A stretch of DNA of 63,942 nucleotides, counting the filler, from Thermoplasmatota archaeon (lineage in GTDB: Archaea; Thermoplasmatota; Penumbrarchaeia; Penumbrarchaeales; EX4484-36), in NCBI GenBank assembly GCA_029932465.1. It is 3 parts of 3 records of this genome, joined end to end, with 100 filler letters (N's around TTAATTAATTAA, not from the genome) between each part and the next. Parts side by side here need not be neighbours in the genome. Positions count along the whole stretch, not along the records: positions 1 to 29,937 come from JAOZQA010000023.1; 2 more parts are not named here. One strand, given 5' to 3'. The position numbers are program-made. Positions within the stretch are counted from its first letter, which is position 1, and each line of letters opens with the position of its first letter. Below, piece after piece: positions 9,001-12,000 of this stretch.

Positions 9001-12000
9001 GTTCAACAGGATCGTGGAGGAGGCCAAAGAGGCCTATCAGAAACTTCTAAAAGAGGGAATCCCTGCGGAGGACGCCCGCTTCATACTCCCTCAGGGAATT
9101 GAGACCAACATCGTTGTTACTATGAACGCCCGGGAGCTCTGGCACTTCTTCACCCTGAGGACGTGCTTCAGAGCCCAATGGGAGATAAACCAGGTCGCTT
9201 GGGAGATGCTGAGGCTTGTTAAAGAGGTGGCCCCAGAGCTCTTCAGAGGGGCAGGCCCGGCCTGCATAAGAGGGCCCTGCCCGGAGGGGCCGAAAAGCTG
9301 CGGCTGGTGGAGAACCCGGGAGGCTAGGAGAATGAGGGAGGAGTACCGCAAGGCGAGGCTGAAGTGACTACAGCCTCATATTTATTCTCCTCAGCATGAA
9401 TTTGGCTGTGGGGTTTTCAGGGGCGAGCTCAAGAACCTTTTCGAACAGCTCCTTCGCCTGCTGAAGTTCCCCAGCAATATATAGCTTCTTCGCTCTGTCG
9501 AGCAAGGCATCCACGGATTCCTCCTCCGCCCGGTGCTTTTTCACCTCTCCTACTGCACCCCCCTTGCTCAGAAGGTCCTTCAGTCTCTTTAGGTCCTCCT
9601 CCACCTCCTCTAGGAGATTGGGATACTTCAGCTTTATCCTTATCAGGCTTGCCTCCCTCTCCACCCCGCTCAGGTCCATGGAGTCCAGCTCCTTCCGAAT
9701 CTCTTTCATCCTCTCCGCCCTTTTTCTGAACTCCTCAAGCTCCCTCTCCGCCTCATCTATACCTTTCTCATCGTAGACGATTTCTATCTCACCTACGAAG
9801 AAACCCTCCTCCTTCAGCCTGTGAACCTCCTCAAGGAACCTCTTCATCCTTTCCTCCTCCGGTGGCGGCCCTTTTGGGGCCTTCTCCTCCTCCTCAACCC
9901 TCCCCTCCTCCTCTTTTAAAGCCTCTTCCTCTCCCTCAACGCCCATGAGCTTTGTCAACTCCTCAAGGCTTCGGGAAAGCTCCTCTATCTTTTTTACAGC
10001 CTCCTCTTTGGCCTCCTCAAGGTGCTCTTCGGCCCCCTCCTTCTGAAGGCTCTCCTTTGACTCCTCAATCATCTTTCTGACTTCGCTTATCTCGTCCTCT
10101 GGAATCCTCTTTCTACTTCTCTTCAAAACAGCCTTCTTGAGCTCCTTCTCCGCCTTTGCAAGGACCACTTCCGGCTCTTCCCCGGCGCTCACGCGGCCTC
10201 TGTAAGAGACCACCTGAGAGGTCATCTTGAGAGACTCCATCTGCCTCAAGACGGTCTCAAGGCGGGTCAGAGAAACCAGATGGCTCCGCCATCTTTCCAG
10301 CTCATCCCTCACCTCTTCTTTGGTGAACTTCTCTCTCTTCAAAAACTCATCGATGCCCTCTGTAGGATATCCGAGAACCTCAACCCTCTCTTTGACCTTT
10401 TTAAGCTCCTCCAAAAGCTCCTCTAGCCCAGCTTCCTCTCCCCCCACCTCCTTCAAAGCTGTAGGGAGGAGCTCTTTAAGTCCTCTACCGAGGGCCAGTT
10501 TACCCTTCTTCATGGGAGATCACTTCCTTGGCTAGCTCCAGGTACGCCCTGGCGCCAGAAGCGGAGGGCATATATAGGACCACGGGCTTGCCAAAGCTGG
10601 GTGCCTCACCCAGCTTAACATTTCTGGGAATTACAGTTTTATAAACCTTCTCCCCAAAATAGGACCTCACCTCCTCCACCACCTGTTTGGATAAATTCGT
10701 CCTGGAATCGTACATGGTCATCAGTATTCCTTCAAGCTGCAATTCCGGGTTCAGGTTCTTCTGGACGAGGTATATGGTATCCAGAAGCTCACTCATACCT
10801 TCAAGAGCGTAATATTCGCACTGCAGTGGTATGAGCACGGAGTCGGAGGCTACAAGGTTGTTGATCGTGAGGAGCCCTAGGGAGGGGGGCGAATCAAGGA
10901 TGATGTAATCGTAGCGGCCGTTGAGCTTCTCCAGCTTCTTTTTCATGATATACTCCCTGTCGGGGATGTCAACCAGCTCAACGGTGGCGCCGGCGAGGTT
11001 CACATTGGCGCCTATGAGGTGGAGGTCCTCAATGTCCGTGTTGAGTATGGCTTCCTCAACGTCGCACTGGTCCGTGAGCACCTCGTATATTGTAAACTTC
11101 AGTTCGTGCTTCACAAACCCAAGGCCTGAGGTTGCGTTTCCCTGAGGGTCCGTGTCGATAAGAAGTGTCTTTTTTCCCAGAACCGCTAAGGATGCGGAGA
11201 GGTTTACTGCCGTGGTGGTTTTTCCGACGCCTCCCTTCTGGTTGACGATTGTTATCTTTTTTGCCATCAATATCCCCCATCTTTATTTTTGGGTCGGCTT
11301 TTCCTTTCTACCAAGGTGTGATAATAAAAAAAGCTTCTCCTATTTTTATCCTTTTGCAGATTTTGTTAAGTACTCCCTATAGGCTCTCTCATCGGTTCTC
11401 CTCCCCCACGGGGTGGGGTACTCCCTTGTGAGGCAGGCGGTGCAGAGTTCGCTACGGGGCATACCTATGGCCCTTATAAGCCCCTCCATGGATTGATACA
11501 TGAGGGAGTCAGCCCCCAGACGACGGGCCATCTCCTCTGCCACACCCTCTTCTGGCACGCCTTCGCGAATCCTGTCCTGGTAAGGAGCCGCGAACAGCTC
11601 CGAGAAGGTCTTCATGTCGATCCCGTAGTAACAGGGCGCAATTATAGGGGGTGTGCCGATCCTCACATGCACCTCCTTAGCACCGCCGAGCTTCTTCAGG
11701 TGGTAGTTCACTATGGTCTTCATGGTGGTTGACCTAACTATGGAATCATCTATCACAACCACTTTCTTCCCCTTCAGCACCGACCTTAAGGGGTGGAATT
11801 TCGTCATGACCTTGAGGTGGCGGCTGCTCTCCTCTATGAACGTTCTCCCCTTCGTGGTCTCGATCAGTCCCTCCTCGTAGATCTCAGGCAGCCCGAGGGC
11901 CTTGGCGTAGGCGTTGGCTATAGGCCTAGCCGTGTTAGGAACGGGAATTATCACCCACTCTTTCTCGTTTATGTTCAAAAACTCCATGCGCGCCAGCTCC

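Follow-up and report, generated by a model that had tools for sequence, protein, structure and literature searches.

What does a chromosomal-type bacterial ParA ATPase act on in an archaeon in which ParB is missing? The window, meaning the whole 63,942-nucleotide stretch of DNA that was analysed, raises this question through a soj gene on its first part (positions 1-29937), which is contig C1 of a Thermoplasmatota genome of 1.92 Mb in 88 contigs that is 94.6% complete (G000). The survey's finding for the locus was that the ParA switch had apparently been moved from ParB/parS onto three non-ParB proteins serving as cargo adaptors. These proteins are called here A (the gene after soj), B (C82:27357-28625) and C (C43:17020-18366). 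The gene content is archaeal, and one of the proteins has a 73% identical homologue whose source labels it 'Thermoplasmata archaeon'. An assembly chimera was ruled out, as the stretch is carried by 20 listed runs of 17 studies, chiefly of vent and sediment samples, five of these runs being its possible source. No RNA sample holding the locus was listed among the runs that carry the stretch.

The Soj ATPase and the search for ParB

The soj gene (10500..11267, minus strand) encodes a chromosomal-type bacterial ParA ATPase of 255 amino acids (AAA_31, 229 bits), which is the sole strong AAA_31 match in G000; translation could also start at an in-frame TTG, at 11270. An AT-rich gap lies between purF and soj (11271..11345, minus strand). 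The relatives have a conserved CAAAAC..A[CA]ATATA box about 55 nt before soj, less clear in G000, which is a likely archaeal BRE/TATA promoter. Against the 80 bacterial relatives retained from 1 of 64 parts of the genome collection, the identity of Soj ranges from 53 to 61%, the best being from Ignavibacteria (61%); the Bacillus pumilus protein reaches 60%. As the survey had stated, most genomes of the order hold an orthologue (22 of 26, G000 counted). The four genomes without soj also have the full-length A and purF orthologues missing or cut by a contig end, as in G008, where the contig end falls inside purF; they thus fit assembly gaps, and a real loss of soj is unproven.

In a tree of 63 of 118 rows (every second bacterial row, the bacterial rows again coming from 1/64 parts of the collection), the Sojs of the order and of G168 form one clade (100/99), which lies inside an open fork with bacteria. 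A single origin of all close archaeal Sojs was neither shown nor rejected with these rows (p-AU 0.41).

Soj aligned without gaps to the M. xanthus-numbered ParA chain 8ray (E 1.8e-85), through which the residue numbering of PMC12462528 was transferred. In PMC12462528 the ParB pocket of M. xanthus ParA is given as Y81, E82, D110, V116, E117, L150, G151, L152, L155, L187 and L192. Among the 21 order sequences long enough to align, 143 of the 255 columns of Soj are invariant, and the pocket residues Y81, E82, V116, E117, L150, G151, L152, L187 and L192 are identical in all 21. L155 is L or I (I in two sequences), and D110 is replaced by N, a residue also found there in 22 of the 80 bacteria. The residues K11, K16, D38, D40 and N44, which represent the deviant Walker A with its signature lysine, motif 2 and Walker B, are present in every order Soj that covers them. 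R209 (M. xanthus numbering; R189 in Soj), a DNA-binding residue of the M. xanthus protein, is kept in 21 of 21; at the DNA-binding R238 (Soj position 218), 20 sequences have K and one has R. DNA binding by the order Sojs may be weaker, because D110 is N and R238 is K. Judged from its sequence, Soj is a chromosomal-type ParA with its catalytic, pocket and basic DNA-binding positions retained, and DNA binding is predicted.

The claim that neither the genome nor its order has ParB was upheld. The ParB_N family (PF02195) was matched in none of the 26 order genomes, compared with 11 of 14 controls, and G000 had no match at E<=1. Across the phylum PF02195 was matched in 46 of 301 genomes, none of which has a close Soj at E<=1e-4, and G039 gave one sub-threshold match. 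A custom ParB profile was also built from bacterial genes after soj with the first 25 residues removed, 77 of 79 of which carry a GxRRxRA-type box. This motif-free profile found nothing in the six frames of G000 (best E 0.56). The system is not a member of ParABS and would work like a ParA-plus-activator system.

A ParB-type motif at three N-termini

The survey had used a consensus for the ParB motif that binds ParA, and the same consensus is printed as LG-R/K-GL in an excerpt of PMC12704722. A position matrix trained solely on 77 bacterial ParB N-termini was scanned over 570,650 positions in 1,478 called genes of G000. The three highest ranks were B (30.9 bits), C (27.2 bits) and A (14.9 bits), followed by a next match at 9.0 bits, and five shuffled proteomes gave no match at 14.9 bits. 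A six-frame scan added one 58-aa non-gene frame (17.9 bits). In A, which begins MKKGKLALGRGLKELL, the motif is LGRGLKELL at residues 8-16 (10466..10492, minus strand) and is preceded by a basic lead-in. B begins MKKKKSLGRGLWALI and C begins MRNRKSLGKGLGALF.

The motif is kept in 22 (A), 24 (B) and 19 (C) of the 26 order genomes. For A this represents all 22 readable loci, which confirms what had been reported for the gene after soj, and the earlier claim for the homologues of B and C also held. For B, 21 of 23 best-hit loci carry the motif and the remaining two are truncated at their 5' end; three more genomes were added by pattern, and seven additional loci were set aside as other TPR proteins. 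For C, 17 genomes show [LI]G[RK]G[LI]xAL and two more have K in the first place, with seven other TPR loci dropped. C was not found in seven of the 26 genomes, among them all four of genus g3. Neighbour genes support the orthology of B and of C at two loci each. Identity to G000 was far higher in the motif than in the rest of each protein, as had been proposed: 59% versus 24% in A, 83% versus 28% in B and 75% versus 24% in C. The central R/K is retained in every aligned orthologue of all three. The A motif is the most diverged, with D or E replacing the usual A in 22 of 22 sequences and M at position 5 in 16 of 22; L-G-x-G and the L at motif position 8 are invariant in these 22 sequences. The A motifs score 5-17 bits, compared with at least 24.5 bits for the training set, whose values are self-scores.

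A degenerate form of the motif matched 82 times in the 26 order genomes, compared with 11 times for its reversed control. When 19 extra matches were translated, they were solely B or C orthologues or frames in which the pattern is not N-terminal; no fourth motif family was present among them, and about six weaker matches lie outside that set. In nine genomes of the class without a ParA-type match the degenerate pattern gave five matches, none of them LG[KR]G; one, in the Soj-less G150, is FGRGL, close to the beginning of a frame that resembles an enzyme. For comparison, a stricter K/R pattern applied to five soj-parB bacteria gave one match in each of four, located in parB, and none in the fifth. 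An RNA or DNA element was ruled out as the cause of the motif, because third codon positions vary.

These results bear on whether the motif is merely left over from a captured operon in the case of A, and matches by chance in B and C. Such an origin would draw on the motif being short and glycine-rich, and on the A copy being diverged and overlapping the last codons of soj. Several observations oppose it. First, the three proteins hold ranks 1-3 of 570,650, with none in the shuffles. Secondly, three families retain the motif although the identity of their bodies is 24-28%. Third, its codons vary synonymously. Lastly, LG[KR]G was absent from the nine Soj-less kin. This explanation is very improbable. 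The peptides of A, B and C very probably bind Soj, to judge by their sequences and the pocket. The move of the ParA switch from ParB/parS onto three non-ParB proteins is likewise well supported at the level of sequence, since the motif is conserved, the Soj pocket is intact, ParB is absent and the motif is lacking in Soj-less kin. That part of the survey's finding stands. The term cargo adaptors is the likeliest reading of the three proteins; the genes neighbouring soj, B and C at the loci read are housekeeping genes, and no cargo for A, B or C was identified among them.

Architecture of the partners and probable origin of A

Partner A (9368..10513, minus strand) is an acidic protein of 381 amino acids (pI 5.2) that consists of the ParB-type peptide, two helical repeats, a linker and one TPR. 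Repeat 1 covers residues ~30-134 (10112..10426), belongs to no Pfam family and was modelled with a pLDDT of ~90. Repeat 2, of the W..EG[YF].V..L type, covers residues ~219-320 (9554..9859) and was identified from the repeat profile and the model. Beyond the helical repeats, A also closes with one TPR (residues ~334-380; 9374..9514, minus strand like the repeats), for which the TPR_2 match was below the cut-off and the structural match to TPR folds reached Z 8-10, with an rmsd of ~1 over ~50 residues. The model of A was built from a 19-sequence alignment (mean pLDDT 77, pTM 0.35). Residues 1-25 are of low confidence in it, as would be expected of a flexible tail. A Foldseek search with the model gave no match at E<=0.001, and a wider search was filled by TPR proteins. 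An Atlas search (best score 0.86) returned solely TPR look-alikes, and protein searches with A and with the first 120 residues of B returned two near-identical proteins each.

The TPRs of B and C match above the Pfam cut-off. The peptide is followed in B by a conserved helical domain of small size and in C by what is likely a coiled-coil hairpin, and then in each by an acidic linker and TPRs. Each of the three proteins has the motif first, then a helical domain, an acidic linker and TPRs, and each joins a basic N-terminal peptide (flexible according to the A model) to a separate candidate cargo-binding body. All three are acidic, with net charges of -12 to -29, and no HTH, RHH or wHTH match (Pfam, NCBIfam) was found in any of them.

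The acidic charge and the missing HTH and RHH domains speak against the persistence of chromosome segregation, in which A, B or C would replace ParB by holding a sequence-specific DNA protein through the TPRs, in the manner of AspA-ParB-ParA or SegAB. Such a role would agree with the chromosomal type and high conservation of Soj, with the place of A at the parB position and with the pairing of ParA with archaeal adaptors described in an excerpt of PMC5120986. However, no small DNA-binding gene adjoins soj in the loci read. A scan of the 94.6% complete G000, with a parS consensus, also gave no perfect palindrome and one at one mismatch. A surviving segregation role is therefore unlikely in our judgement.

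The three partners could instead be stationary landmarks drawing Soj to a site in the cell, as PadC does on bactofilin, and not moved cargo. PadC has a motif for ParA binding and brings ParA to a cytoskeleton (excerpt of PMC12704722), and a more distant family has, behind soj, a gene in which a similar peptide is attached to an EamA membrane transporter. A, B and C, however, have no membrane segment in their sequences or Pfam matches, and the central R/K that every aligned orthologue retains is required for activation rather than binding in M. xanthus (excerpt of PMC12462528). The landmark role is decidedly unlikely.

The start of A overlaps the end of soj by 14 nt (10500..10513, minus strand), which places A where parB lies in bacterial operons. 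Most order loci (19 of 22) share an overlap of 8 nt, G000 and G001 have one of 14 nt, and L019 would be the twentieth 8-nt overlap if its start is the first ATG. In bacterial soj-parB pairs the 8-nt overlap is the commonest class (18 of 79). The profile of repeat 1 matches repeat 2, proteins on contigs C49 and C55 of G000, and Soj fusions. The C49:32168 protein, for example, has A-type repeats and a similar last TPR and is without the motif. The A-type repeat was found in five of five Soj-less relatives tested and is native to the archaeal lineage. A looks like a chimera, in which the first codons of parB are joined to a native helical-repeat/TPR gene, and it may have arisen when those codons, left behind soj, fused to such a gene. 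B and C would have gained the peptide through either copying or convergence. In G039, G049 and G028, from two other families, the A repeat is fused to the C-terminus of Soj, which provides a second link between Soj and the repeat that is independent of the motif. A pattern search found no motif partner in these three genomes, and G164 has a Soj (54%) without any motif pattern match; related Sojs thus persist without peptides.

Proposed role and comparison with known systems

The reading that we prefer is that Soj, with three ParB-tagged partners, positions or tethers protein assemblies over the nucleoid and not a centromere. Its chances are about even. It is the best reading of the acidic, protein-binding bodies, which have no recognised DNA or membrane domain. 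By inference from M. xanthus ParA-ParB, DNA would be coated by ATP-Soj dimers, the motif's four hydrophobic residues would enter the dimer-interface cleft, and the central R/K would trigger hydrolysis and release. As in McdAB and PomXYZ, the repeat and TPR bodies might then hold protein cargo, which local depletion of Soj would move or space. The three partners would represent either three cargoes or one joint assembly. In M. xanthus, strong activation by ParB needs two juxtaposed peptides (excerpt of PMC12462528). This need for paired peptides, the diverged A motif, the K in first place in two C orthologues, the Sojs without motif partners, the partial absence of C, the FGRGL of the Soj-less G150 and the D110N and R238K replacements count against the positioning role.

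The peptides might alternatively bind Soj as a switch, with A, B and C setting its monomer/dimer ratio and Soj regulating SMC-ScpAB or a truncated DnaA AAA+ protein. B. subtilis Soj controls DnaA and SMC, and a change at V323 (V323D) protects DnaA from it (excerpts of PMC9564211). G000 has an smc-scpA-scpB-like cluster (C27:14535-19689, from a motif scan and reading of translations), a Cdc6-like gene and two proteins, on C66 and C55, with a DnaA AAA+ domain. Both match residues 111-346 of chain 8btg (AAA+ domain III), gave no Pfam match to DnaA domain I or the DNA-binding domain IV, and fall below the TIGR00362 cut-off. The Walker A lysine, Walker B, sensor and arginine-finger positions are invariant in 30 of 30 DnaA-domain loci. 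The A repeat recurs in a 1229-aa DnaA-domain protein of G000, and DnaA-domain genes lie within ~7 kb of soj in G168, G028 and G049.

The co-occurrence that the survey had reported stood as a count: DnaA-domain proteins were found in 40 of 301 phylum genomes, comprising 28 of 28 with a close Soj and 12 of the 273 others. As a mechanism it is weak, because the genomes are relatives rather than independent cases and the association may reflect descent. The hint is further weakened by the 12 genomes with a DnaA domain and no close Soj, at least nine of them outside the order and one a single contig (G154), and by V323 being kept in only 4 of 30 loci. The repeat family is also abundant in Soj-less kin. 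The DnaA suppressor positions L294, L337 and A341 were given no weight. A link between Soj and DnaA is possible and not needed, and the switch role is unlikely. DnaA-domain proteins were also seen fused to repeats, DUF835-type tails or a pilus-type ATPase.

A broader account would join these elements. Thermoplasmatota would have taken up bacterial Soj, the ParB peptide and the DnaA AAA+ domain, dropped the sequence-reading parts (ParB fold, DnaA domain IV and parS) and rebuilt the rest as a protein-only spatial hub, with the peptide as a portable Soj address tag and the DnaA-domain proteins as Soj outputs. This joint account is tentative and probably does not hold as a whole.

The proposed positioning system can be set beside several known ones. 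It resembles chromosomal ParABS (B. subtilis Soj-Spo0J, M. xanthus ParA-ParB) in the Soj sequence, the pocket, the LG[RK]GL motif, the gene order and the 8-nt overlap, but differs in that no ParB CTPase fold, HTH or parS was found and the motif lies on three proteins. Chromosomal ParABS is described as generally absent from archaea (excerpt of PMC12704722). As in PomX/PomY/PomZ of M. xanthus, a single DNA-binding ParA-type ATPase would answer to more than one activator; the models put PomX and PomY on two different sites, and neither has the ParB motif, whereas the three candidates here share a motif and would share a site. Except for PomXYZ, ParA/MinD systems have a single activator according to an excerpt of a 2026 paper (PMC13170346). 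In McdA/McdB and other ParA/MinD cargo systems, as described in the excerpts, the partner is likewise a basic flexible N-terminus on a cargo body, but every ATPase there pairs with a partner of its own, whose peptide is specific to the system, whereas here the peptide is that of chromosomal ParB and the neighbourhood has no cargo genes. PadC of M. xanthus is also a non-centromeric protein with a ParA-binding motif, but it retains the CTPase fold of ParB and acts alongside ParB (excerpt of PMC12704722). SegAB and AspA-ParB-ParA of Sulfolobus and the small partners of integrated elements also pair an archaeal ParA with non-canonical partners, but these are small or have a ParB-like domain and act on DNA.

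No description of the system was found in the literature searched, which covered few subscription papers. The main text of a ParA survey (bioRxiv 10.64898/2026.10.19.760177), as far as available, has no occurrence of 'Thermoplasm', 'DnaA' or 'Soj', and the data sets of that survey and of PMC12704722 could list these genes. Further sources were PMC11407121 and bioRxiv 10.1101/2022.06.09.495121. The system is real, conserved and, within the literature searched, undescribed. Its unusual point is the presence, order-wide, of three same-site candidate activators for one ATPase. If the proposed role is true, orphan ParA cargo systems would be shown to arise from ParABS, with an intermediate visible at the gene junction, and the ParB peptide would be a transferable tag. 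It would also offer a handle on cell organisation in uncultured Thermoplasmatota, archaea being said to lack chromosomal ParABS.

Relatives beyond the order show further arrangements. G168 carries a pair of soj genes: an A orthologue comes after the first of them and two motif genes come after the other, while a small GTPase gene precedes a fourth motif gene. In G190, G199, G250 and G289, soj is accompanied by a ~90-aa partner starting KRRGLD or KKRGLD; the ParAs of these genomes are 44-48% identical and branch apart. Motif-type peptides were seen in all on repeat-TPR, TPR, coiled-coil-TPR, zinc-ribbon, EamA transporter and small helical bodies.

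Genes downstream of divergent and other soj copies

A divergent Soj accompanied by an EamA transporter was found at six loci in family f14 of the related genomes: L183:5557-6522 (genome G157), L184, L185, L308, L315 and L318. This Soj carries an N-terminal extension, is 40-43% identical, and is altered at the Y81 and R209 positions. The EamA transporter encoded after it starts with GLGRGL or GLGRSL, and it could be a membrane tether for the f14 Soj. Three more loci have an EamA gene at the same place after soj, when counted by gene rather than by start peptide. In other f14 genomes and in family f31, the gene after soj encodes a protein of 130-200 aa (L313, L316, L320, L187, L186 and L319) that starts with LGRGLDDL or GGRGLDHL; L186, the one scanned, had no Pfam family. 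In genome G044, a 100-aa gene overlapping the end of soj (L174:6410-6712) encodes a double zinc ribbon preceded by the sequence KKKGLGKSL. Also, a small GTPase gene at L323:1737-2789 (contig C30 of G168) has a motif gene directly after it, which encodes a short helical protein with LGKGLGALF.

Repeat fusions, a repeat paralogue and orphan ParB-fold proteins

At L172:4764-7559, L173:2041-4056 and L175:4682-6553, Soj is fused by way of long acidic linkers to the partner A helical repeat, which is present two or three times. Genomes with such a fusion also encode another Soj, which is more distant and lies close to a long coiled-coil gene. The genome under study encodes an 825-aa paralogue of partner A, with repeat and TPR, at C49:32168-34645; it is basic (pI 9), is missing the motif and is surrounded by ATP synthase-like genes. 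The peptide is likewise missing from the orphan ParB-fold proteins of class relatives without Soj (L299, L300, L301 and L295). Six matches were found in G188.

DnaA-domain proteins

Truncated DnaA AAA+ proteins are encoded on contigs C66 and C55 of the genome under study (L189:4113-5351 and L188:1286-4972) and at loci L190-L219. They occur in 40 of 301 phylum genomes, with at most eight matches per genome, and their catalytic residues are intact. A conserved acidic helix is one kind of tail that they carry; zinc ribbons and DUF835 (the last at L171:3-1529) are others. At L231:6856-9294 (G044), a DnaA AAA+ domain forms the N-terminal part of a fusion with a FlaI/VirB11-type secretion ATPase behind it, and two genes resembling C20:31470-33406 of the genome under study come after the fusion gene.

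Window neighbours and acidic proteins

Contig C1 covers window positions 1-29937 only, and positions 29938-30037 and 59362-59461 are runs of N. The gene at 7332-8591 (+) is convergent with the soj operon, with thyX between them, and encodes a 419-aa protein that consists almost entirely of helix-hairpin-helix repeats plus an acidic linker; this protein could bind DNA without sequence preference. A very acidic protein (40% D+E) encoded at 15231-16007 (-) had no Pfam match, and another (32% D+E) is encoded at C62:19172-20827 of the same genome. Both have similar basic starts, KKKRIKVKWE and RKRKIKVEWE, respectively, and related starts lie near a DnaA-domain gene in L220 and L221.
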